37,821 nt of DNA from a virus (taxonomy: Duplodnaviria > Caudoviricetes): the IMG/VR virus record IMGVR_UViG_3300036987_000119, positions 1-37,821 of that record. The stretch is one strand, 5' to 3'. A program made the translations under genes and the position numbers. The notes below the pieces were generated by a model, which saw nothing but the letters and a program-made list of their open reading frames with translations, was not told the origin of the DNA and searched no databases. Below, piece by piece: positions 1,349 through 32,722 of this stretch. Position 1 is the stretch's first letter. Each line of letters opens with the position of its first letter.

Positions 1349-1531
1349 GGTTTCCCCTTTGTGGTCATTTGAAGGTCGCCCCTGTCCGGTGACAGATTTT
1401 GGCCGCCCAATCTAGCGGTTTTTGGAGGGAAAGTCAAAATCCTAATCGGCCTCATGACCACCTATCTTGGATTCGACGCCCCCGGGGGTGACGGGGGATG
1501 ACAAACGGAGAGGCTGGGAAATGCTAAATGT

Positions 1532-1566
1532 GATGTTGGCGATGGTTGGCGGATGGTTGGCGATGG
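1532..1566 (+). repeat. Three-plus imperfect 9-11-bp tandem repeats (GATGGTTGGC-like) near the left end; candidate transposase-binding region
   Basis: gatgttggc / gatggttggc / ggatggttggc / gatgg seen directly; function inferred from position. Confidence 0.6.
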
Positions 1567-1589
1567 GTTATTTTCGGGCCGTTTTCAAA

Positions 1590-1733
1590 TTATTTTTGAT
1601 TGGTCGGATTGCCTCCGGGCGCTGGCGGATTGTGGGTGTTTTTTGAAACGTAAATATTGATCGTCAGGTTCTGGATGATGTGCCCGCCGGCTTGAAAATT
1701 TTTGGCGCCGCGGACCCGTTGCGCGCTGCTCAT
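1590..1733 (-). CDS. 47-aa peptide (below the ORF-track cutoff) carrying the QxxxGxxNxQAG motif
   Basis: Manual translation MSSAQRVRGAKNFQAGGHIIQNLTINIYVSKNTHNPPAPGGNPTNQK; AGGAGG 7 nt upstream of ATG; co-oriented last gene of the leftward operon. Confidence 0.7.
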   Translation of the reverse strand: MSSAQRVRGAKNFQAGGHIIQNLTINIYVSKNTHNPPAPGGNPTNQK

Positions 1734-1769
1734 TTGACCCCCTCCTGATGGCTGACCTCTACAGTTTAT

Positions 1770-2744
1770 TCACAATTCCACTTCTTTTGCGTCGATGATG
1801 ACCGCCTTGGTGATTTCCCCCCGCAACTCGTGCCCGTTTATCGTCAGATAGATCGGCTTTTTCTGCCACTCCGCATCGCGAATGACGGCGAGGTTTTTCT
1901 CTCGCTGAGCGATGAACCCCTCTTGCAGCTCGGCCGTGCATGTTCTCCCGTCTTCCAGTCTTATCTCCACGAAGAAGCCTTGCGGCTTTGAACTGTCGAC
2001 CTTGAGAATCCGGCAGGCGCCATTGAGCTGAACCTCCTGGGAGCGTTCTCGCGGGTTGCGAACCAGCTCTTGGGCCAACTCTTTCGGAATCGTGTGCCCG
2101 CCAACTTCGACAGAATCGGCCCGGGTCGACACCTTCAGCAGCGTGTTGTAGAACTCCCGCATATCTTCGCGGGTTTCCCGCAGCTCGGGGCGCATATCCA
2201 TGGCTTGAACCAGCAAAGCATTTCTCTTGTAGTCAAGCTCCTGGGCAAACTGCTGGGCCTCGATCTGGCGTTGGTCCTTCTGTTCCTGGAGATACGTTTT
2301 CAAGCAGGAGTCGGCCCCCCACATCAACGCAACGGAGACCAGAACAATCGTCCAATGTTTGGCTTCCATCTTTTTCACCATCCCCGTTGTCAGCTTGTCA
2401 ATCGCCTTGGCAAAAATCGCCGTCAGGTCAGTAGATCCGGGCCCGACCTGGACAAAAAAATCCAACGCCGCCTTTTCGTCCTTGGTCAATGCTGCGGCGG
2501 TCCCTTTTCCTAAATATACCTGAGCATAGGTTCTGTAAATATCTCTTTGCAACTGAATAAACGCATCCATGATGCGCGGCGTCAACGATGAATTGAATTC
2601 GTCGCCGTTCAGCTTGACCTTGATCGCCGGCCATCCCTCAAAACTGATCTCGGCCAGGTCCGATGAAATGCGGTCTTCGAGAGCGCTCTGTAGAGCCTCC
2701 CACGCCTCTTCTTCGTTTCTTATGCGCAGGGCAAGTGCAGACAT
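1770..2744 (-). CDS. Hypothetical 324-aa protein with one central hydrophobic helix and a beta-rich C-terminus (accessory gene)
   Basis: Long ORF, RBS AGGAGG, segment WTIVLVSVALMWG; no family recognised. Confidence 0.8.
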   Translation of the reverse strand: MSALALRIRNEEEAWEALQSALEDRISSDLAEISFEGWPAIKVKLNGDEFNSSLTPRIMDAFIQLQRDIYRTYAQVYLGKGTAAALTKDEKAALDFFVQVGPGSTDLTAIFAKAIDKLTTGMVKKMEAKHWTIVLVSVALMWGADSCLKTYLQEQKDQRQIEAQQFAQELDYKRNALLVQAMDMRPELRETREDMREFYNTLLKVSTRADSVEVGGHTIPKELAQELVRNPRERSQEVQLNGACRILKVDSSKPQGFFVEIRLEDGRTCTAELQEGFIAQREKNLAVIRDAEWQKKPIYLTINGHELRGEITKAVIIDAKEVEL

Positions 2745-2778
2745 CGGGCCCCTCCTGTGGGGATAGTCGTCAAAATGG

Positions 2779-3192
2779 TCACTCGCCGCCGATCCGGCTC
2801 AGCAGCTTGCGGCGGAACAGCTCGGCGAGCACGTCCTGGTGAGCGCGAAGGTCGAGTTTGATGAGGGCGCGGGTCTGGATCTGGCGGATGGCCAGAGCGG
2901 AGGCTCCGGCGATGGCGGCGACTCCGAGGAGAGAATATCCCCATCGGCCAAGGAAAGCACCGCCATAGGCCAGCATCGCCCCGGTGAGGAAGAGGAGGAA
3001 GAGCAGATAGAGGATTTCATCGACCCGGGCGAGACGCCGTCGTGTGGATTTCATGGAGTCGAGGGTGCGTGCCGTGGCCTGGTCGAGATCGGACGGAAAG
3101 GTGGGATCGCCCAGCAGGGCGATGATATGGATGTCGCGCGCGGCCTGAAGATTGCCGTTGCCGTAGATGTACTGACGGAAATGGTCGAACAT
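2779..3192 (-). CDS. Two-TM membrane protein with N-terminal QYIYGNGNLQAARDI motif
   Basis: ATG at 3192 preceded by GGAGGGG; two hydrophobic helices (ILYLLFLLFLTGAMLAYGGAFL, YSLLGVAAIAGASALAI). Confidence 0.8.
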   Translation of the reverse strand: MFDHFRQYIYGNGNLQAARDIHIIALLGDPTFPSDLDQATARTLDSMKSTRRRLARVDEILYLLFLLFLTGAMLAYGGAFLGRWGYSLLGVAAIAGASALAIRQIQTRALIKLDLRAHQDVLAELFRRKLLSRIGGE

Positions 3193-3237
3193 GTTCCCCT
3201 CCGAGTGGTCCAAAGTGTTCAATAAATAGAAAAGCGA

Positions 3238-3777
3238 TCAGTCGGGCCGTTTGTCGTCGGTGTAGAAACACCAGGGCCGCAACTGGTTTACATAGAGAGG
3301 CTTGTTTCCGACCGCCGCCTTGGCCTCGTCGCAGGTCGGCCAATGGTCGCTTTTGCCGAGCAGATAGTCGAGGCGCTCCCACAACATATTATAGGGGATG
3401 GCCGTGTTGAACAGCTCCGTCCCGGTTTGTATTCCGATCCCCCCCGAATGCTCTTCCACCTGGGCCTTTACCAGCACCCCATCCTGGTCGGGGGTGGCGC
3501 GAACATCCCAAATGAAGTTCCCGGAGGGAGCGATGAAGACCAGATAAACATCATATCGACGGTTCGCCTTGAGCCCGTCGGACGTGTAGGCATAGGTGTA
3601 GTCGGAACCATCCGATAAATCGAAAATAGATTCAACCCGCTGTAAAATCTGGCCCTGCGTTACCCCCGGATAATGTCTTTGGGTCGCGATGAGAGCTTCT
3701 TCCCGCGACATTTGCGGAGGGGGAACAGCGCAGCCGAAAAGGGCCGCTGCCAGCATGATAAGTAAACCATTTTTCAC
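3238..3777 (-). CDS. Lipoprotein, possible superinfection-exclusion factor
   Basis: Signal peptide with lipobox LFG-C (MKNGLLIMLAAALFGC); start overlaps the HNH gene stop; function inferred from location only. Confidence 0.8.
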   Translation of the reverse strand: MKNGLLIMLAAALFGCAVPPPQMSREEALIATQRHYPGVTQGQILQRVESIFDLSDGSDYTYAYTSDGLKANRRYDVYLVFIAPSGNFIWDVRATPDQDGVLVKAQVEEHSGGIGIQTGTELFNTAIPYNMLWERLDYLLGKSDHWPTCDEAKAAVGNKPLYVNQLRPWCFYTDDKRPD

Positions 3778-4544
3778 CGGGACAGCCCCTCCACCCGCAC
3801 CCGCCCACCATGCTTTTCCTTGCAGGACCTTGTCGGGTCACATTCAATGGCATATTTGTTTTTTACATACCCCCACCACCATTGGAACTCGTCGCCGTAG
3901 AAATTGCTGTCGGAATACTCCAGGCCGCATGCCTTGCAAATCAATGATTTGTTGAGGCTTTCCGGTATATATTTGCCATCGCCAGCGTCAACCTTGTATT
4001 CAATCGTGAAGTCGGAATTACCACATTTACAGCCGGCGATTACTGCCGTGAAGTGCTTCCAAAACATTTCTTGTCGCGGTAGCCTGACTTTGTTTACGTA
4101 AATCCTTGATTCTTCGGACTTAGATGACCAGTCGATCCTATCCCACTCTTCGCGCGAAAGTTTGTGCCGGTCAAATAGATGGTGGTGGTTCGCACAGAGT
4201 GTGACGTAGTTGTCTGCCTTGTCCGCCCCTCCATGGTTGCGGGGTATGATGTGGCATTGATGAAGCACCCTGACTTGGCCACAGACCTCACAAGGGTTGA
4301 ACCTCTGGATAAATGATTGACCGGGGTTCTCATCCCACTGGGGATATTTGGTTAAGTCAATATTTAGGTCAAACTTGTCGCGCAGGATTTCCTTCCGGTA
4401 GATATCGGCAACCCTCATCAGCACTTCGTTGAACAATTCCTGTATGGAATTTTGAATTTTTTCAGGCAAAAGCTGATTGTTTTCCCGGAAAAAAGACATC
4501 AGCATTGGCTGAACCTTTGGGTAGAACTTGTTTAATGCATCCAC
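3774..4544 (-). CDS. HNH endonuclease domain protein with an additional C-terminal Cys cluster
   Basis: CEVCG...HQCHIIPRNHGGADKADNYVTLCANHHHLFD is a Zn-binding HNH signature; further CKCG and CKAC pairs; visibly AT-richer than the phage core. Confidence 0.88.
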   Translation of the reverse strand: MDALNKFYPKVQPMLMSFFRENNQLLPEKIQNSIQELFNEVLMRVADIYRKEILRDKFDLNIDLTKYPQWDENPGQSFIQRFNPCEVCGQVRVLHQCHIIPRNHGGADKADNYVTLCANHHHLFDRHKLSREEWDRIDWSSKSEESRIYVNKVRLPRQEMFWKHFTAVIAGCKCGNSDFTIEYKVDAGDGKYIPESLNKSLICKACGLEYSDSNFYGDEFQWWWGYVKNKYAIECDPTRSCKEKHGGRVRVEGLSR

Positions 4545-4546
4545 CC

Positions 4547-4978
4547 TTACGCCCCCTCGCTCAACCTCTTCCTGATTTCCTCAATAGCCTTCGGCGCTAG
4601 ATAGTCAGCCAGGACGCGGACGACCTGGTCGACATCGACCGTCGCGGCGCCCTGCCGTGATTCGTCGGCATACACCCCGCCGACAACCTTCCCATTGATG
4701 CTTCCCCCCGCCTGAATATTCCCGTTCCCCGTCGCCACCTGGTAGGTCGAAAAGTCTTCCTTGCGGCTGACCATTTCGCCCTGGCCGGTAATCAGCCATT
4801 CGATGTTGACCCAGGGGAAGGCTTCTTTTAGCACCAGGAAGAACTTTGGAGCCGGTTGGCTGTCCCCTCGCAAATAGGCAAAGAAAATAGATCGGCTCAC
4901 CCCTGTTTTTTCAAGGATGTCTTTCTTTTTGAGGCCAGAAGCCTCGCAGAAAAGTTCTAGCCTGTCAGAAAAAGACAT
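4547..4978 (-). CDS. Prophage repressor (Xre/CI-type HTH, no S24 peptidase domain)
   Basis: MSFSDRLELFCEASGLKKKDILEKTGVSRSIFFAYLRG...VNIEWLITGQGEM is a typical CI N-domain; divergent from a ner-like gene; start moved to ATG 4978. Confidence 0.88.
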   Translation of the reverse strand: MSFSDRLELFCEASGLKKKDILEKTGVSRSIFFAYLRGDSQPAPKFFLVLKEAFPWVNIEWLITGQGEMVSRKEDFSTYQVATGNGNIQAGGSINGKVVGGVYADESRQGAATVDVDQVVRVLADYLAPKAIEEIRKRLSEGA

Positions 4979-5001
4979 AATTATTAGGTAGATACAAAAA
5001 A

Positions 5002-5054
5002 AGTATAGATGACCGCACTTTTTTCTTGATAAGTGCGGCATAACGCACTATTGT
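5002..5054. promoter_or_regulatory. Genetic switch: two 18-bp operator-like sites and divergent promoters
   Basis: AGTATAGATGACCGCACT (5002-5019) and the palindrome AGTGCG-GCATAA-CGCACT (5032-5049); rightward TTGATA-N17-TATTGT (5026-5054); leftward -10 TATACT (5002-5007). Confidence 0.75.
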
Positions 5055-5119
5055 CTTCAGCAACACAAAGAAAAAGCCGCGAAAGATTAGCCCATCAAAC
5101 CCAAAAAAAGGAGGTCTCT

Positions 5120-5359
5120 ATGAAACCCCTGGATATCCGAATCGCCCTGATGCGTGCCGGTGTTCGTCAGACCGACATCGCCGCCGCCGCTGGTGTCACC
5201 CCTGGGCATGTCGCGTGTGTGCTCGACCGCAAGTCGAAGTCGGACCGTGTGCAGCGGCTGATCGCCAAGGCTCTGGAGATGTCGGTGGAGCAGGTATTCC
5301 CCGACATCTACGTGGCGAAACCGCGAGCGCAGCGGGTGCGTGAGCGACTGGCAAGCTGA
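5120..5359 (+). CDS. ner: Ner/Cro-like HTH regulator
   Basis: MKPLDIRIALMRAGVRQTDIA...RLIAKALEMSVEQVFPDIY matches the Ner/Nlp pattern; RBS AAGGAGGT; divergent from the repressor. Confidence 0.82.
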   Translation: MKPLDIRIALMRAGVRQTDIAAAAGVTPGHVACVLDRKSKSDRVQRLIAKALEMSVEQVFPDIYVAKPRAQRVRERLAS

Positions 5360-5411
5360 CGGTATCACAGCCGAATCGAAATTTGAACATTTTTTAACAG
5401 GAGGAACGGTC

Positions 5412-5906
5412 GTGTCCATTGTCAAGGTCTCCCCGTTAGAGATTGCCCCGACTTGCTTGCCGAAAGTCTCTTTCATGCGCCGGGTTAGTCCGGCGGGGAC
5501 GGTTTCTTTTGCGGGGCATTGGTATGCAGTTCCGGAAACTTGCCGCGCTTTTGATCGGGTCGAGGTGTTGCTCGATCGGACCTCGGATCTTCCGCGAGTG
5601 TTTCTATGTGTTGAAGGCGAAGATCCAATTCTACTAGGAGACTATAAATCCGCTCCAGACAGTCTTTCTTCAGTCCCGCCGTTTCACAGTCAGGCCGGTA
5701 CAGCCCCTCTTCCGAACAGTACTGGGCATTCGGGCAATCGGAAAAAGCGCGGTAGTCGCCGGGGACGATCCACCGCTTCCCATCGCGCGGCGGGTAGTAG
5801 GAAACGGCGGTCATCGCCGCGCCGCACCAGGGGCATTTGTGCCTGTAGCGCCCTTCGCGGGCATATCTGCGCGAGCGGTCCCATGTCTCCGGCTCAGGGT
5901 CGTTGA
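5412..5906 (+). CDS. Hypothetical protein with a transposase C-terminal-like beta-barrel segment
   Basis: AGGAGG 7 nt before an in-frame GTG at 5412; RRVSPAGTVSFAGHWYAVP resembles RTVDGNKSISFEGKTYRL of the transposase in this window; 3' part overlaps an antisense ORF. Confidence 0.5.
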   Translation: MSIVKVSPLEIAPTCLPKVSFMRRVSPAGTVSFAGHWYAVPETCRAFDRVEVLLDRTSDLPRVFLCVEGEDPILLGDYKSAPDSLSSVPPFHSQAGTAPLPNSTGHSGNRKKRGSRRGRSTASHRAAGSRKRRSSPRRTRGICACSALRGHICASGPMSPAQGR

Positions 5907-5952
5907 AGTGGTGGGTTTGTAAACAATTTTCGTTCAGACAGGCGAATTCCAT
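5485..5952 (-). CDS. Cys-rich hypothetical protein, antisense to the early operon
   Basis: RBS AGGAGGT before ATG; CxxxxC and CPWC motifs; has its own predicted promoter. Confidence 0.7.
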   Translation of the reverse strand: MEFACLNENCLQTHHFNDPEPETWDRSRRYAREGRYRHKCPWCGAAMTAVSYYPPRDGKRWIVPGDYRAFSDCPNAQYCSEEGLYRPDCETAGLKKDCLERIYSLLVELDLRLQHIETLAEDPRSDRATPRPDQKRGKFPELHTNAPQKKPSPPD

Positions 5953-5981
5953 GACCGACCTCCTGGATGGGTGATGGTCAC

Positions 5982-6010
5982 AGCGTAACAGGGTGGCACA
6001 ACCCTCTCAA
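5982..6010 (-). promoter_or_regulatory. Leftward sigma70-type promoter
   Basis: TTGAGA (6010-6005), 17-nt spacer, TACGCT (5987-5982), about 30 nt upstream of ATG 5952. Confidence 0.65.
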
Positions 6011-6062
6011 CGTCTAACCGCCAATTTTGTTTTGAGACTTACGGGTAGAGGAGACCCCTGCA

Positions 6063-6599
6063 ATGACGAGGAAATTTTCTTTTTTAGACCCAAACCAGCT
6101 TCCCCTCGATTTCGCCGCCCAGGTGGATGAGTACGTCGAGGTCAAAGTCGACCTGTTCGAGGCCGCAAAAGAGGTCCCGGCCGCGCATGTGGCCGAAAAC
6201 GAGATGGAGGCCTGCATCGAAATCGCCGCGGCGATCAAGCGCACGGTGCGCGAGTGCGGCATGAGCCGCGAGCAGCTGGTGGATGGCATCAATGCCTATT
6301 TCGGCCGCTCCGACGAGGGCGCCGAGGCGGACCCGCCCAACTGTCGGCGCCCGCTCACGATCCACATGCTCAACAATTATCTGTCGAAGCCCTGCGAGTA
6401 TCCCATTCCCGCCTACTACCTGTATGCCATCCACGCCGTGACCGGCATCATCGAGCCGGGGGCGACGATCATCGCGGCGGCCGGCGGGCAGGTGGCGACG
6501 GCCGAGGAAGTGCGGTTGCTCCAGCTCGGCAAGCTCGAGCAGACCCTCGATGAAATGCGGCGGCTGCGGTCCGAATTGCGCGGGAGGGGGAGACGATGA
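6063..6599 (+). CDS. Phage early protein, probable DNA-binding regulator (CII-like)
   Basis: RBS GAGGAG; helical HTH-like segment (GMSREQLVDGIN...TIHMLNNYLS); early-operon position. Confidence 0.7.
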   Translation: MTRKFSFLDPNQLPLDFAAQVDEYVEVKVDLFEAAKEVPAAHVAENEMEACIEIAAAIKRTVRECGMSREQLVDGINAYFGRSDEGAEADPPNCRRPLTIHMLNNYLSKPCEYPIPAYYLYAIHAVTGIIEPGATIIAAAGGQVATAEEVRLLQLGKLEQTLDEMRRLRSELRGRGRR

Positions 6600-6736
6600 G
6601 GTGGGCCGTGGCGGGGTTTCTGTTTGCCGGGCTGATTCTTGGCGGGTCGGAAGGCGCCTGGTGGCCCTGGCCGAATATCGCGGGGCTGTGCGCCCTGCTC
6701 GTTTTCGCCGCGCTGGTGCGGCGCATGGAGGCTTGA
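6596..6736 (+). CDS. Small membrane protein (46 aa, not in the ORF track)
   Basis: MRWAVAGFLFAGLILGGSEGAWWPWPNIAGLCALLVFAALVRRMEA; ATGA overlap with the upstream stop, abuts the next ATG. Confidence 0.65.
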   Translation: MRWAVAGFLFAGLILGGSEGAWWPWPNIAGLCALLVFAALVRRMEA

Positions 6737-7036
6737 ATGACGACATACAGGAGGATCGAGGCGGTGCGGGTCACGGTCTCGATATTGCGGGCGCTTTCCA
6801 ACCAGCGCCAACCGGTCAACGGGCAGGAGCTGGCCCGGGAACTGGATATTCCCGCCGGGACGGTGATGTGCCACCTGGCGACGCTCGAAGATGAGGGGCT
6901 GGTCCGCAGCATCGGCGGCGCCTACGAGCTGGGCATGGGGATGTCCCTGTTTTGGGCCCGGTACAAAAGCCTGGTCGAAGGGAAGATCGACCGGCTCAAC
7001 AACGAACTCAAGCAACTGGAGGTAGACCATGGGTAA
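6737..7036 (+). CDS. IclR-type HTH DNA-binding protein
   Basis: ILRALS...NGQELARELDIPAGTVMCHLATLEDEGLV...YELG is an IclR HTH pattern. Confidence 0.85.
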   Translation: MTTYRRIEAVRVTVSILRALSNQRQPVNGQELARELDIPAGTVMCHLATLEDEGLVRSIGGAYELGMGMSLFWARYKSLVEGKIDRLNNELKQLEVDHG

Positions 7037-7928
7037 GGCGGAAGCGAAAGCGGTGGAAGAGGTCTACAACCTGGCCCGGCAGCAAGCCGATGCAGAAATG
7101 GCGAAGTTGCGCGGCGAGATCGACGCCGTCCGCGAAGAGTCGCTGGCTCTGGGCGTACTGCAGAAGATCGAATACGACCTCGCCCACAACCAGATGCTCA
7201 AATATGTGGTGCTGCATCGCATCAAGCAGGCGAAGGAGTACCGCAAGGGGGGCATGACCTGGGACCAGTTTTGCGAAGCTCTTGGCGACGAGCGGCGAAA
7301 TGTTGACAGGATTCTTACCGATATTGGCCCGATCATTTCGACAGTTTCGGACAAAATGTCCGTTTTTACAGGGATGGATTTCAGTAAAATCAGGCTCTTA
7401 GGTCGTTCAATTTCGGACAAAATGTCCGAAATTACCGAAGACGGGATGCTTGTGATCGCCGGCGAACGCATCCCCCTCACCCCGGACTACCGCGACGACT
7501 TGCAGGCGGCACTGGAGCAGGTGATCGAGACCAACGCCAAGATTCTGGCCGACAAGGACGCGACGATCCGCGCCAAGGACAAGGTGCTCAAGGACAAACA
7601 GACTTTGATCGAGCGCCAGGCCAAAGACCTGGCGAAGCTGGAAGACGCGGCGTTCAAGGCGGGGATGACCCCCATCGAAGAGGCGTTTATCAAGCGGATG
7701 GAGAATCTGCGGGTGTCCTTCGACGGGTACATGCTCAAGGTCGACCCGGAGCGCTGCGAGCTGGGGAAGGCGGATGCCGAGAACACCCCGCGCATGGTCG
7801 CCGCCTATCTGACCACCCTCGATTACATGCGCAAGCAGCTTCTGGCGGCCTTTGATACCGCCCAGGATATGTACGGTTCGCTCACCATGTCGCCCGAAGA
7901 AGCCGTCTGGACGCAACCCGAGGAGTAG
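7029..7928 (+). CDS. Conserved Mu-like phage protein upstream of the transposase (DUF3102-like, coiled coil)
   Basis: Position directly before the transposase; TWDQFCEALG...RNVDR motif; long coiled-coil segments. Confidence 0.75.
   Translation: MGKAEAKAVEEVYNLARQQADAEMAKLRGEIDAVREESLALGVLQKIEYDLAHNQMLKYVVLHRIKQAKEYRKGGMTWDQFCEALGDERRNVDRILTDIGPIISTVSDKMSVFTGMDFSKIRLLGRSISDKMSEITEDGMLVIAGERIPLTPDYRDDLQAALEQVIETNAKILADKDATIRAKDKVLKDKQTLIERQAKDLAKLEDAAFKAGMTPIEEAFIKRMENLRVSFDGYMLKVDPERCELGKADAENTPRMVAAYLTTLDYMRKQLLAAFDTAQDMYGSLTMSPEEAVWTQPEE
7345..7433. repeat. Two copies of the palindrome TTTCGGACAAAATGTCCG inside a CDS
   Basis: Identical 18-mers at 7345-7362 and 7411-7428; the second extends to 11-bp arms (AATTTCGGACA-AAA-TGTCCGAAATT, 7409-7433). 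Confidence 0.85.
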
Positions 7929-7931
7929 CCC

Positions 7932-9617
7932 ATGGAATGGGAGTGGGAAAGGGAAATGGCGCAGCGTCTTGCCGAAGCGGCGCCCGGAGAAAAGGAACAG
8001 ATCATCGCCGGGTATTCCGTGATGACGGGGTTGTCTACCTCGACCCTTTACCGCCGGGCAAAAAAGGCCGGGTTTTCCAGCGGCCGGGCACCCCGCAAGG
8101 ACAAGGGGGAACTCAAGGCCGGTTTGACGGTCGCCCAGGTCGAATACGTGGCGGCGCTGATCCACGAAACGGGACGCGACAACAAGGGCGGCATCATGCC
8201 GGTGGAGCGGGCTCTGGAAATCGCCATGGATAACGGGATTGTCGCGCCGGGGCAGGTTTCGGCGGCCAGGATGCAACAGATTTTGCGCGAGAGGGAAATC
8301 AGCGCCAAGCACATGCGCGAGGCGACGCCCCATGTGGAACTGCGCAGCCTGCACCCGAACCACACCCACCTGTTCGACGTGTCGGTGTGCATTCAGTATT
8401 ACCTGCGCGGCGGCAAGATGCGGCTGATGAAAGAGACGGAATTCTACAAGAACAAACCCGAGAATTTCGCCAAGGTCAAGACCCGCCTGCTGCGCTATCT
8501 GCTGGTGGACCACTTCAGCGGCGCCTTTCACCTGAAATATTACGACACCACCGGCGAGTCGGCGGACAACCTCTTTGACTTTCTGTGCGAGGCCTGGCTG
8601 CCGAAATCGGACCCGCGTCTGCCTTTCCACGGCGTCGGCTTCTTCGGGCTGATGGACGCGGGGAGCGCGGCGATCTGCAAGCCGATGCAGGCGTTTTTCA
8701 AGGCGCTCGACTTCAAACACCCGGAAGGTCTGCCGCACAACCCCCGCCGCCAAGGGGCCGTCGAAACCATGCACAACGTCATCGAGCGCTGGTTCGAATC
8801 GGGGCTGAAGATCCAGCCGGCGACCAGCGTCGCCGAGCTGAACGCCTGGGCGCACGACTTCATGATCCGCTTCCAGGCGGAAAGAAAACACACCCGGCAC
8901 GGGCTCCCGCGGTTTTCGTGCTGGATGCAGATTCGCCCGGAGCAGTTGCGGGTTCCGCCGTGCCGGGAAGTGCTGCAGTACATCTACGCCCGCCCCGGCG
9001 AGGAACGCACCGTCGATGGCAACAAGTCGATCAGTTTCGAGGGGAAAACCTATCGCCTGCGGCATGTGGAGGGGATTCGCCCGGGGTCGAAAGTGATGGT
9101 GACGATGCGCCCCTATGCCTGGCCGCAGGTGGGGGTGACGTTCAACGATGTGGAGTATCTGGTCGACCCGGTGGGGGTGTTGCCGGCGGAGTTGGGCGGA
9201 TTCAAGGCCGACGCCCTGGTGATCGGCGAGGAATACCGGGGGCACAGCGAAACGGTTTCGCAACAGGCGGCCAAGCGGTTTGAAAACATCGCCTACGGCG
9301 AGCAGGGCAAGAAGGCCCGTCCCTTCGCCGGGACTTTGGTCTTCGGCCACCAGGCCGACAAAATCGGCAACGTGGCGCCGATGCCGCGCCGGGGGACGCC
9401 GATGGAGGTGAGCCGGAGCGTGGTGCAGGCCCTGCCGATTATGGAGTTGTTCAAGCGGCTGAGCGCGGCGGGCACGCGCGTGGACGCTGGGCTGAACAAG
9501 GAATTGCGGCTGGTGTTCGGGCCGACCATCGCGCCGGCGGATGCCGACGAGGTGGTGCGGGCCATTTCCTGCGGCGAGGATTGGCGGCCGGTCACCGCCA
9601 CGCGGCAGGCTCTTTAA
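7932..9617 (+). CDS. Mu-like DDE transposase (A protein)
   Basis: N-terminal HTH; candidate catalytic D (HLFDVS), D (LMDAGS), E (GAVETMHN); C-terminal beta-barrel RTVDGNKSISFEG; followed by an AAA ATPase. Confidence 0.92.
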   Translation: MEWEWEREMAQRLAEAAPGEKEQIIAGYSVMTGLSTSTLYRRAKKAGFSSGRAPRKDKGELKAGLTVAQVEYVAALIHETGRDNKGGIMPVERALEIAMDNGIVAPGQVSAARMQQILREREISAKHMREATPHVELRSLHPNHTHLFDVSVCIQYYLRGGKMRLMKETEFYKNKPENFAKVKTRLLRYLLVDHFSGAFHLKYYDTTGESADNLFDFLCEAWLPKSDPRLPFHGVGFFGLMDAGSAAICKPMQAFFKALDFKHPEGLPHNPRRQGAVETMHNVIERWFESGLKIQPATSVAELNAWAHDFMIRFQAERKHTRHGLPRFSCWMQIRPEQLRVPPCREVLQYIYARPGEERTVDGNKSISFEGKTYRLRHVEGIRPGSKVMVTMRPYAWPQVGVTFNDVEYLVDPVGVLPAELGGFKADALVIGEEYRGHSETVSQQAAKRFENIAYGEQGKKARPFAGTLVFGHQADKIGNVAPMPRRGTPMEVSRSVVQALPIMELFKRLSAAGTRVDAGLNKELRLVFGPTIAPADADEVVRAISCGEDWRPVTATRQAL

Positions 9618-13918: not shown

Positions 13919-14101
13919 ATGCCCAAACTTTGCACCCCGGAATGTCGCCACCTGCGCAGCATCCGCTACGGGTTCGACGGCAAGCCGATCGTGGCGGCCG
14001 GGTACGACAAGCGTGACAAGATGGCGACCTGCGCGCTCAATCCGAAGGCTCGGATTAAGCTTTCTGGTCTTCCTGTTTGCTTTATGGAGGAGGTGGATTG
14101 A
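13919..14101 (+). CDS. Small Cys-containing hypothetical protein
   Basis: RBS AGGAG; stop overlaps the next start. Confidence 0.65.
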   Translation: MPKLCTPECRHLRSIRYGFDGKPIVAAGYDKRDKMATCALNPKARIKLSGLPVCFMEEVD

Positions 14102-14322
14102 TGGGCGGTATAAATCACGCACGAATTGAGACGAGCGACCGTTTGCGCCGGGTGCTGGCGGTGCTTTCGGATGGGAGAGAACACAGCACGCTCGATATCC
14201 AGGCCTATGCCCGGGTGTGCGCTGTCGGGACGACCGTCTCGGAGCTGCGCGCCAACGGGTTTTCTATCTCGTGCCAACGGCGCGGGGATGTTTGGTTTTA
14301 TCGGCTGGAGGTCGCGCCGTGA
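14101..14322 (+). CDS. Winged-HTH protein
   Basis: RVLAVLSDG...STLDI...VSELRANGFSI...YRL pattern; RBS GGAGGAGG. Confidence 0.75.
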   Translation: MGGINHARIETSDRLRRVLAVLSDGREHSTLDIQAYARVCAVGTTVSELRANGFSISCQRRGDVWFYRLEVAP

Positions 14323-14474
14323 GATGCCCGGAGAAAACTGAGGTCTGGTCCAGGGTGTGCGGGTTCTTTCGGCCGGTGGCGCAATGGAACCGGGGGAAGA
14401 AAGCCGAGTACCGCGAGCGGGTGAATTTTGCCGTGCCGGGCACGGCAGGCGGAAGTCCGAAGTCTGAAGACTGA
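14319..14474 (+). CDS. Stand-alone NrdD-like glycyl-radical domain peptide (51 aa)
   Basis: TEVWSRVCGFFRPVAQWNRGKKAEYRER matches the C-terminus of anaerobic ribonucleotide reductase (RVCG glycyl-radical loop); GTGA coupling, RBS GGAGGT. Confidence 0.82.
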   Translation: MRCPEKTEVWSRVCGFFRPVAQWNRGKKAEYRERVNFAVPGTAGGSPKSED

Positions 14475-14485
14475 AGGGGAGCCTT

Positions 14486-14596
14486 ATGACGATCCTGATC
14501 ATTGTCGCCGTACTGGTCGTCGCCGAACGGGCGGCAAGCTGGGCGGCTCCGAGGGTGATTGAGTTTGTGATTGAGACGTGGCGGAGGGCGTTTTGA
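14486..14596 (+). CDS. Small hydrophobic peptide (36 aa)
   Basis: MTILIIVAVLVVAERAASWAAPRVIEFVIETWRRAF; RBS GGGGAG. Confidence 0.5.
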   Translation: MTILIIVAVLVVAERAASWAAPRVIEFVIETWRRAF

Positions 14597-14832
14597 AAAA
14601 GGCCGCGAACATTTATGCCAGCTTGTACGACGGTCACTTTGATGTCGGGTTTGATTGCCCCGGGGCTGAATCATGCCAGTATGCGCTGTGCGCCATGATG
14701 CCGCCGGATGGGGTACATGATTGTTTCTTCCATGAGCACGGCTCTTGCCGCCAGCAGACCGCGCAATATGACGCGCTCGAACGGCTGATGAAGAGACTTA
14801 AGGGCAAGATGAAGGAGTTCGACGACGAATGA
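14578..14832 (+). CDS. Cys-rich hypothetical protein (start uncertain)
   Basis: Five Cys residues; ATGA coupling to the next gene. Confidence 0.6.
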   Translation: MAEGVLKKAANIYASLYDGHFDVGFDCPGAESCQYALCAMMPPDGVHDCFFHEHGSCRQQTAQYDALERLMKRLKGKMKEFDDE

Positions 14833-15284
14833 AACTCCGTTGCCCTGTTTGCCATTCCTCGAACTCGCTGGAAGCCTTCACCGCCGCCGACGCCGGGCGC
14901 GAGCTGCTGGTGCTGCTGGCGTCGACCGGGCCGCTGTTTCGGCCTTTGGTGGCGTATCTGGGGCTTTTCCGCCCGGCTAATCGGGACCTGTCGCACGAGC
15001 GGGCTTTGCGGTTGGCGCGGGAGGTGGTGGAGCTGGGCGCCGATCCGCGCGCCCTTGCCGCCGCCCTGACCGATACCGTCGAGGCCATGCGGGCGAAGCG
15101 GGACGCGGGGCAGATCAAGCCGTTGACGAATCATAATTATCTGCGGAAGGTGTTGGAAACGGTGCAAATCCCCCCCAGCCCCCCTTTGGCAAAGGGGGGG
15201 GGCGAGCGCAGCGAGCGGGGGGATTTGCCGCGCAGCAAGCGCGCCCAGGGGATTGCCGCGCTGGAGGATTGGAGCCGTGGATAA
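14829..15284 (+). CDS. Conserved Mu-like phage protein with N-terminal CxxC
   Basis: MKLRCPVC...YLGLFRP...PLTNHNYLRKV, typical of genes upstream of gemA-like genes. Confidence 0.8.
   Translation: MKLRCPVCHSSNSLEAFTAADAGRELLVLLASTGPLFRPLVAYLGLFRPANRDLSHERALRLAREVVELGADPRALAAALTDTVEAMRAKRDAGQIKPLTNHNYLRKVLETVQIPPSPPLAKGGGERSERGDLPRSKRAQGIAALEDWSRG
15164..15228. repeat. Nested palindromic element embedded in frame in a CDS
   Basis: GCAAATCCCCCC ... GGGGGGATTTGC outer arms with inner CCCCCCTTT-GGC-AAAGGGGGG hairpin. Confidence 0.75.
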
Positions 15285-15639
15285 TACCGCCTGGCTCAAG
15301 CGCGAACTGTCCGCCGGGTTGCAGGCCCTGGTGGCGTTGGGCCTGCGCAACCAGCCCGCCTCCGATATGTTGCCGCTGACCGCCGACATCTGGCTGCGCG
15401 CCGTGCGCCGGGGGAACATCGGATGCGACATCGAGCGGATCGACGCGCCGCGGATCCGCGAGGCGTTTGATCGGATGTTCCCGGAGTTGACCGAATGGCC
15501 CGCGCCGCGCCAGCTGCTCGACCGCATTCCGCCCCGGCCGAAGCGGGAGGCCCTGGCCGAACCGGTGGGGGATACCGGAGAGGGGCTGGCGCGGATCCGG
15601 GAGATCCAGGAACTTTTGAACCGTTCAACAAGCATTTAA
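15277..15639 (+). CDS. Conserved hypothetical Mu-like phage protein
   Basis: GTG 15277 after GGAG; GLQALVALGL...TADIW...EWPAPRQLL pattern. Confidence 0.75.
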   Translation: MDNTAWLKRELSAGLQALVALGLRNQPASDMLPLTADIWLRAVRRGNIGCDIERIDAPRIREAFDRMFPELTEWPAPRQLLDRIPPRPKREALAEPVGDTGEGLARIREIQELLNRSTSI

Positions 15640-31753: not shown

Positions 31754-32722
31754 ATGGCCCAGGCAAAAGGCTCCGCGAGCCAAGTCATCATCCAACAAGA
31801 AACCGCCTTCGGCACGGACCCCGCCGCCCCGAACGCCCAGCTGCTGCACTTTTCGACCTGCGGGTTGAAGATGAGCCGCGCCCTGGAGCGCAGCGACTCC
31901 ATCCAGCCGAACCGCAACCCGTCGAAGCCCGCCCGGGGCAACATCCAGGTCGGCGGCAACCTCAACCTTGAATTGCAGGCCTATATCGGCCTGTTGCTCA
32001 AGGGGGCATTGGGCAGCGTCACGACGACCGGCACCTCCGCGCCTTATACCCACACCTTCAAGGTCGGCACCAGCCTGCCCAGCTTCATGATCGAGAAGGG
32101 CTTTACCGACATCAACCAGTTCTTCAAGTATCGCGGCTGCAAGATCAACCGCATGAGCTTCAATCTCACCCCCTCGGGGTTTCAGAAAATCGATTTCGAC
32201 ATCATGGGCGCCGAGGAAGTGCAGGGCACGACCAGCTTCGACACCACCCCGACCAACCTGGGCAAGTCCCCCTTCGACGGCTTCGCCATCGCCACCATCG
32301 AAGAGGGCGGCAGCGCGATCGCCAACGTCGTCGGCATCGACAACCTGAGCATCGAAAACAACCTTGACGGCGACATGTACCTGGTCGGCGGCGCGGGCAA
32401 GCGGGCGGCGGTTCCGGAAGGGTCGGTGGTGGTGACCGGCACCCTGAAGGCCCTGTTCGAGAACGTGACCCTGTACAACAAGGCCGTCAACTACACCGAA
32501 TCGAGCCTGAAAATCGTCTACCAGCTCGGCACCGGCGCCGGAACGGCGGGGAACGAATACCTGGAGTTCTTCATCCCCGAACTCCTTTATGCTCCCGATT
32601 CGCCGCCCATCGAGGGGCCGCGCGGGGTGCTGGTCTCCCTCCCCTTCGAGGCCTATTACGACAACAACGCCCAGACCACGGCATTGCAGGTGGTGCTCAA
32701 GAACACTCAGGAGACGATCTGA
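31754..32722 (+). CDS. Major tail tube protein (non-contractile tail)
   Basis: QETAFGT...LPSFMIEKG...YRGCKI...VTGTLKALFE; no sheath gene nearby. Confidence 0.87.
   Translation: MAQAKGSASQVIIQQETAFGTDPAAPNAQLLHFSTCGLKMSRALERSDSIQPNRNPSKPARGNIQVGGNLNLELQAYIGLLLKGALGSVTTTGTSAPYTHTFKVGTSLPSFMIEKGFTDINQFFKYRGCKINRMSFNLTPSGFQKIDFDIMGAEEVQGTTSFDTTPTNLGKSPFDGFAIATIEEGGSAIANVVGIDNLSIENNLDGDMYLVGGAGKRAAVPEGSVVVTGTLKALFENVTLYNKAVNYTESSLKIVYQLGTGAGTAGNEYLEFFIPELLYAPDSPPIEGPRGVLVSLPFEAYYDNNAQTTALQVVLKNTQETI

Follow-up and report, generated by a model that had tools for sequence, protein, structure and literature searches.

We analysed a 37,821-nucleotide stretch of viral DNA (Duplodnaviria; Caudoviricetes; IMG/VR record IMGVR_UViG_3300036987_000119), referred to below as the window, and found that three products of the immunity region of its Mu-like prophage share a 15-residue motif: the prophage repressor, a small membrane protein (the partner) and a 47-amino-acid (aa) peptide. 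Across related prophages the motif is conserved and co-varies between repressor and partner. The first-pass annotation, made from the DNA letters alone, had interpreted the motif as a RHIM/amyloid-like signalling element; our results partly support this interpretation, in that the motif behaves as a conserved tag that also co-varies, but they do not support the RHIM identity. The main features are as follows.

4547..4978, minus strand: prophage repressor, 143 aa, with an XRE-type helix-turn-helix (HTH), a motif linker and two C-terminal helices (PHROG repressor families, E 1.6e-7)
4697..4741, minus strand: motif copy 1, repressor residues 80-94 (alignment of repressors, profile scan)
4556..4633, minus strand: conserved C-terminal helix pair of the repressor (alignment, AlphaFold model)
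2779..3192, minus strand: membrane partner, 137 aa, N-terminal motif followed by a long helical hairpin with a hydrophobic middle (alignment, hydropathy, AlphaFold)
3130..3174, minus strand: motif copy 2, partner residues 7-21 (alignment of partners, profile scan)
1590..1733, minus strand: 47-aa motif peptide (homologues, codon substitution pattern); its last codons overlap the prophage end element
1677..1721, minus strand: motif copy 3, peptide residues 5-19 (alignment of peptides, profile scan)
1741..1746, minus strand: Shine-Dalgarno sequence, 7 nt ahead of the peptide start (strong match)

The three motif copies

All three copies were recovered at the positions where the annotation had placed them, and the repressor and membrane copies are identical at 8 of 15 residues, as it had claimed; the repressor and peptide copies likewise share 8 of 15. 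A profile built from 18 copies at nine other loci, and containing no window sequence, ranked the three copies 1, 2 and 3 among 57,130 six-frame positions (z 8.8, 6.5 and 6.2), and none of 3000 residue shuffles of each motif protein reached the observed score. The other three proteins of the operon were unremarkable in the shuffle test (2783, 78 and 44 of 3000). With a weaker profile, built from repressors only, the copies ranked 1, 4 and 6. A chance-like in-frame match in a late gene, at 31919, scores only 4 points below the peptide copy, whose margin is therefore modest. We conclude that the presence of three matching copies is not due to chance. The motif is also kept in homologues, as the annotation had expected: in 10/10 repressors, 8/8 membrane proteins and 5/5 peptides, with motif columns that are invariant or nearly so across the repressor matches and the membrane proteins.

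In the repressor the motif does lie C-terminal to the HTH, yet it is not a free tail, being located in a low-confidence linker that precedes a conserved two-helix domain. In the AlphaFold model the confidence measure pLDDT (predicted local distance difference test) exceeded 90 for residues 1-70, which form the HTH, and fell below 50 for residues 73-112, which include the motif, with helices at 116-141. The C-terminal helix pair is likely an oligomerisation domain; an ESM Atlas search with this part of the protein returned no match. Several repressors (P0007, P0009 and P0010) carry a second, partial copy of the motif. The family scan found no S24 domain in the repressor, in agreement with the annotation, and the absence of this domain is ordinary among Mu-like repressors.

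Pairing and co-variation of repressor and partner

We searched viral, metagenome and genome collections for related loci and found a repressor with this architecture and the motif at 16 other distinct loci. The co-occurrence on which the annotation had staked its reading was observed in 12 of the 16, each with exactly one further copy, in the first 25 residues of a membrane protein encoded downstream, although these 12 loci also served to build the profiles and the pairing evidence from them is therefore circular. The partner gene in the 12 loci is adjacent to the repressor gene or one gene away. L228, which was outside profile building, also has this pairing of repressor and partner. At L085 a premature stop cuts the partner gene short behind the motif. 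Among six loci with related, motif-less repressors (two of them short) none holds a copy.

Cognate repressor and partner copies matched each other better (mean 38.1) than non-cognate copies (26.5; 13 pairs, permutation p 5e-6), and the difference persisted after near relatives were dropped (11 pairs, p 1e-5) and within the main motif class (9 pairs, p 7e-4); these p-values are optimistic, since related loci are not independent. Joint changes of the motif in both proteins were seen at L008, L081 and L085/L090, and at L083 and L084 both proteins have switched to a second motif class with the partner body unchanged. Identical residues were encoded by identical codons in 40/95 cognate and 303/804 non-cognate cases; codon identity is thus not raised in cognate pairs, which argues against recent DNA copying. 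A motif-blind test with 66 viral HTH proteins (48 scorable) placed three motif pairs among the four best; with a motif-less pair scoring 30, however, this test does not discriminate. The repressor profile gave 7 matches in 401 phylum genomes, of which 6 covered the HTH only.

The membrane partner

The partner had been described as a protein with two transmembrane segments. The first segment is strong, with ten 19-residue windows of Kyte-Doolittle hydropathy of at least 1.6, whereas the second is weak, with one such window. AlphaFold models the partner as a long helical hairpin, with low confidence at the N-terminus. A search among 1.84 billion entries found 38 representatives of the partner body at E<=0.001; most of the 36 that were aligned (two fragments were excluded) start with one of two motif classes. 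The bodies vary around one kind of repressor, from the helical hairpin to a form with two helices, a lipobox-like site and a soluble domain, with other forms in L231 and L237, and this variation is as expected of exchangeable sensors.

The second partner type (L001, 6463-7023, with relatives in L003, L010, L063, L080-L082, L090 and L228) has the motif followed by two hydrophobic helices; a lipobox-like Cys inside the chain and a small soluble domain come after these. Lipidation at such an internal site would be unusual. At L237 the repressor is followed by two paralogous membrane partners, each with the motif at its start, making three copies in total.

In the ESM Atlas the partner resembled unnamed clusters of 130-133 aa (0.91) and generic hairpins. 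Sequence and fold searches of the PDB gave nothing significant, Foldseek returned generic helical hairpins and no match at E<=0.001, and a PADLOC scan of the partner and five relatives found no match. The partner profile matched 2/401 class genomes, both already in its alignment, and none of 391 phylum genomes. No relative of the partner or of the C-terminal part of the repressor was found among GenBank phages, and viral-contig scans with the partner, the peptide and the 324-aa protein of the same operon found no relative.

The 47-aa peptide

The annotation had described the peptide as an uncalled reading frame, which does not hold everywhere, as it is already a predicted protein in the protein collection. 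It has four homologues of 74-89% identity and two further cluster members, all six of them 47 aa long. The block of partner, 324-aa gene and peptide is intact in contigs of three related prophages from three studies, in which the genes between this block and the repressor have been replaced; runs X2 (possibly from the same source as the window) and X5 (a repeat of X4) were not counted. Of 11 distinct substitutions in codons 2-30, 9 are synonymous, where 23-31% would be expected (p 7e-5 to 8e-4); this part of the peptide is under purifying selection. Where the stop codon changes, another stop results. Over codons 31-47 only 2/6 substitutions are synonymous, a count that is incomplete, with the tail of X4 unaligned. 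The mirror frame contains stops, indicating that selection acts on the motif half of the peptide. Judged from these patterns in the DNA, the peptide looks like a real gene.

We considered whether its conservation could be due to the prophage end element and rejected this, since it is true of the last codons only, and stops interrupt the mirror frame. In L008, what looked like a copy of the peptide proved to be the end element read in frame.

The peptide profile gave 25 weak matches in 401 class genomes. The 15 that we read were mostly one housekeeping frame or noise, but included one known partner and one Lamassu locus. So far, the stand-alone motif peptide appears specific to this lineage. 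Like an antirepressor of the Qtip or small-open-reading-frame (smORF) type, it is a small protein under selection; no activator gene lies beside it, and a weak scan found no minus-strand sigma70-like promoter inside the operon.

The prophage and its immunity operon

In the window a host gene for DAHP synthase (281-1348) precedes the Mu-like prophage. Family scans identified a DDE transposase, an AAA transposition protein, Gam and GemA, a Mu-like gene set, and, as in a transposable immunity region, the repressor diverges from a Ner/Cro-like gene at one end, together with transposition genes. The closest named relatives were found in metagenome-assembled genomes of Desulfuromonadales. Six closely spaced leftward genes, the first being the repressor (4978) and the last the peptide (1590), run divergently from the Ner/Cro-like gene; from their spacing alone these genes would form one operon. 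The remaining features of the region are the following.

1489..1605, strand not given: conserved left end of the transposable prophage (alignment with 5 related ends; run X3 diverges at 1489)
1770..2744, minus strand: 324-aa protein with no assigned function (phrog_6191) and no motif; stays with partner and peptide in close relatives
3238..3777, minus strand: lipoprotein-like gene, exchangeable cargo without motif; kept in 1/3 and replaced in 2/3 related prophages
3774..4544, minus strand: HNH nuclease gene (HNH_2, E 9e-8), exchangeable cargo without motif; replaced in 3/3 related prophages
5120..5359, plus strand: Ner/Cro-like HTH gene, first of the early operon (phrog_769, E 5e-12)

From the left end at 1489, about 115 bases align with the ends of five related prophages. 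The end element (1489-1605) comprises an imperfect palindrome, which overlaps the last codons of the peptide, and tandem 11-nt units; both are likely transposase sites. The slot of the HNH and lipoprotein genes (3199-4553) is a variable cassette, and in run X4 the repressor gene is replaced too. Two stretches on the minus strand inside the early operon, 5485-5952 and 13966-15635, hold genes of no confident family; a homologue of the former sits at the equivalent place in L004. In L092, a type III CRISPR-like gene cluster (3341-9501; labelled from the translations) lies immediately past the prophage end.

The motif class in other loci

The use of the motif as a signalling tag is supported by split Lamassu operons, in which a membrane protein is paired with an adaptor. 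One of them, L205, was found through a weak match to the peptide profile (E 0.059). It encodes a 65-aa one-helix membrane protein that ends in the motif, a CTD9 protein that starts with it, an MC5 protein and an LmuB-like SMC. This region (L205/L213, 906-4029; G182:C67) is a Lamassu/ABC-3C operon without an enzymatic effector; a plasmid search with the L205 adaptor found no relative.

Three motif-first DNA scans of viral contigs yielded 34 loci after removal of six re-fetches. Three of these have a split Lamassu-like layout (with a CTD10 match below the cut-off), two (L217 and L218) encode a small membrane protein that ends in the motif and an LPO_1073/Vpar_1526-family protein that starts with it, two belong to the family of the window, and two combine another repressor with one or two membrane partners. 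In 4/34 a motif protein stands next to a motif-less repressor, and the remaining 21 are related contigs with a lone membrane protein that ends in the motif.

The split Lamassu-like layout of L214 (also L216 and L219) lies directly behind an S24-type prophage repressor without the motif, and the L217/L218 pair is a candidate undescribed defence pair. In L215, L220, L221 and L244 the motif falls within the N-terminal part of proteins beside a motif-less repressor, with one weak ORF6C match. The lone membrane protein of L222 (2207-2560) and 20 related loci, 118 aa long (58 aa in L242), is encoded in a phage operon and is a possible decoy.

Comparison with known systems

The RHIM label, which the annotation had attached to the motif, did not hold: the core is not matched by the window copies, and the three motif fragments gave no match to any Pfam family at E<=10, RHIM (PF12721) included. 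Compared with the Gly-hydrophobic-Gln-hydrophobic-Gly signature of RHIM, BASS3 and PP, the window copies carry Asn at the first position and Ala following the Gln, and the last Gly is missing from the membrane copy. The likeness to RHIM and the fungal PP motif lies in the hydrophobic-Gln-x-Gly centre, and many relatives of the window copies have Val after Gln and hence fit the four-residue RHIM core.

BASS1-10 are described, in the available part of 10.1101/2020.01.06.895854, as pairs of short motifs in neighbouring Bell and NLR genes. As in these pairs, a short motif rich in G, N, Q, V and I is common to the products of neighbouring genes, N-terminal in one and behind a globular domain in the other, with an occasional second partial copy; here the copy in the repressor is internal, and the genes may be separated by 0-2 cargo genes. 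The difference is that the motif here is carried by an HTH repressor, a membrane protein and a motif-only peptide, whose genes may be separated by cargo, and by no NLR or Bell domain. Scans with Pfam, PHROGs, NCBIfam and PADLOC and a fold search found no NLR (NB-ARC/NACHT), TGP receptor or Bell-type effector among the six operon proteins, and the words phage, HTH and repressor do not occur in the main text of 10.1101/2020.01.06.895854, as far as it was available. The system would work like a BASS-type pair yet is not a member of RHIM or BASS by the tests run, the logos of BASS1-11 lying outside the comparison.

In the accessible portions of three sources, the receptor of a described motif pair carries its copy at the N-terminus and the effector at the C-terminus (10.1101/2020.01.06.895854, 10.1101/2024.11.07.622273, PMC9815663). 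The Lamassu motif loci follow this rule, and the membrane protein of the window carries an N-terminal copy. Bab/Agp (BASS11), an anti-phage system of E. coli, resembles the present one as a prophage-borne motif pair of a unicellular bacterium with one membrane-targeting partner; it differs in that the Bab motif is C-terminal and joined to a Bell-like killing domain, Agp is a TPR-GreA/B-PIN protein, and no repressor is involved, the accessible text of the source having 0 occurrences of HTH or repressor (10.1101/2024.11.07.622273). Qtip of vibriophage VP882 and the transcription factor-smORF modules offer another likeness, a small phage protein that inactivates and sequesters a repressor and gives SOS-independent induction, but Qtip, according to the parts of these preprints at hand, binds the N-terminal DNA-binding domain of the repressor and has its own activator, with no shared motif or membrane partner (10.1101/2019.12.16.877910, 10.1101/2022.09.16.508337). 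Unlike Qtip, the peptide of the window seems to lie within the operon of the repressor. With Lamassu/ABC-3C (Pfam CTD9, CTD10 and MC5; PADLOC LmuB and LmuC) the tag alone is common: L205/L213 and L214 replace the effector by this motif class, pairing a motif-bearing adaptor with a small membrane protein that ends in the motif, whereas family and PADLOC scans found no SMC, MC or CTD genes in the window operon.

The annotation knew of no lysogeny switch of this kind, and we too found no paper on a motif common to a phage repressor and its neighbours, nor any description of amyloid coupling in Lamassu, in full-text literature searches that left most subscription papers and, for the former, the BASS supplements outside. 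This locus contributes three features: a third gene, motif-only and showing signs of selection; a motif in an internal position; and a pairing that is kept across exchangeable cargo.

Proposed mechanism and alternatives

We propose, tentatively and as a possibility somewhat short of even, that the motif lets the membrane partner capture the repressor by amyloid-like co-assembly of beta-strands, giving SOS-independent induction without RecA, with the peptide as a modulator. The membrane protein would sense an envelope or infection signal and, by clustering in response, serve as nucleator; the repressor would be the output, whose capture would lift repression; the co-expressed peptide would buffer or amplify nucleation; and the prophage would wake on a membrane signal rather than on DNA damage. 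The motif copies presumably co-assemble, and the low confidence of the motif region in both monomer models is what would be expected of a segment that folds on assembly. A complex prediction of repressor residues 70-143 with partner residues 1-60 scored 0.00 and speaks neither for nor against.

Besides the optimistic p-values, several observations count against this proposal. The roles of sensor and output follow from the receptor-N-terminal rule of described systems and are thus an analogy only. All three genes apparently belong to the lysogenic operon, so that a constitutive antirepressor is implausible without a gate, and for the peptide, which the lysogen likely co-expresses, the role of a buffer or amplifier is more plausible than that of a simple antirepressor. 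The peptide was found in no other retrieved locus and as no convincing stand-alone gene among the 401 class genomes, which means that most systems work without it. The cognate pair of the window ranks only 6 of 13 partners, a match to a class rather than to an exact partner. Four loci with a motif-bearing repressor show no visible partner, their contigs all ending 0-1.2 kb downstream. About 6/36 partner-body representatives have, by eye, an unrelated N-terminus with neither motif class, suggesting that the motif is a detachable module. Finally, 25/34 motif-first viral loci (21 + 4) show a single copy within 2.5 kb, of which some may have partners, as the scan threshold missed the known pair L252.

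The same proteins could instead form a repressor-gated defence, in which the repressor in clustered form, whether from the prophage itself or from a related phage entering the cell, templates the motif of the partner and so makes the membrane protein an abortive-infection effector, the peptide acting as a damper. We hold this to be rather unlikely. The operon does hold exchangeable cargo typical of immunity regions, such as the HNH nuclease, in Lamassu loci the motif class also connects an adaptor with a small membrane protein, and the prophage-borne Bab/Agp works likewise in the part of its description available; however, known effectors carry their copy at the C-terminus, the PADLOC and Foldseek searches gave no match within the limits stated above, and the constant presence of the repressor in a lysogen would demand an extra gate. 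Pairing and co-variation would be explained equally well if the motifs joined as beta-strands in a stoichiometric, non-amyloid heterodimer by which the repressor is tethered, stabilised or tuned at the membrane, for which no polymer is needed; SinR/SinI offers a comparison for such mimicry. The lack of a RHIM/BASS match in the Pfam scan, with BASS profiles outside the comparison, also suits this explanation, but we consider it unlikely, as the motif, in its composition (G, N, Q, I, V), its length and its paired layout, fits the amyloid signalling motifs described in the available part of 10.1101/2020.01.06.895854, the partial second copies in P0007, P0009 and P0010 resemble pseudorepeats, and the tag is reused in unrelated defence operons.

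A genome of the likely host class carries the Lamassu operon with this motif class that the peptide profile found, and viral RHIM decoys are described in the accessible part of PMC13506858. Both would fit a peptide, or perhaps all copies, aimed at motif-gated defences of the host, either as a decoy that blocks split Lamassu-type systems or as a relay that listens to them; but the Lamassu match is 1 of 25 weak matches, most of them noise, and the co-variation lies inside the prophage, between repressor and partner, which makes this improbable. Another possibility is that the copies have no joint function and reflect chance or the local duplication of a low-complexity linker. In its favour are the shortness of the motif, the match at 31919 and the motif-blind test, which did not separate cleanly. 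This very improbable explanation is already largely refuted by the ranks obtained with the outside profile, by the joint presence, absence and class switches of the motif, by the lack of excess codon identity, and by the purifying selection on the peptide. Returning to capture of the repressor by the membrane partner, we also envisage a bolder form of it, a three-part amyloid switch in which the membrane sensor nucleates, the motif-only peptide sets the threshold and the repressor joins a self-propagating fibril. Since host Lamassu-type defences use the same motif class, such a prophage could be induced by host immune signalling or could jam it; this extended version is unlikely.

Implications for prophage induction

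The natural mode of induction of transposable and other S24-less prophages is still an open question. The general point is made in the available part of the smORF preprint (10.1101/2022.09.16.508337). A shared amyloid-type tag on a repressor and its membrane partner provides a concrete, mutable interface. If the proposed mechanism is true, amyloid signalling would extend from the execution of cell death to transcriptional control, and the selected motif-only gene would be a dedicated modulator, of which we found none described for bacteria in the literature searched. That split Lamassu operons bear this tag as well suggests a signalling language common to prophages and host defence.

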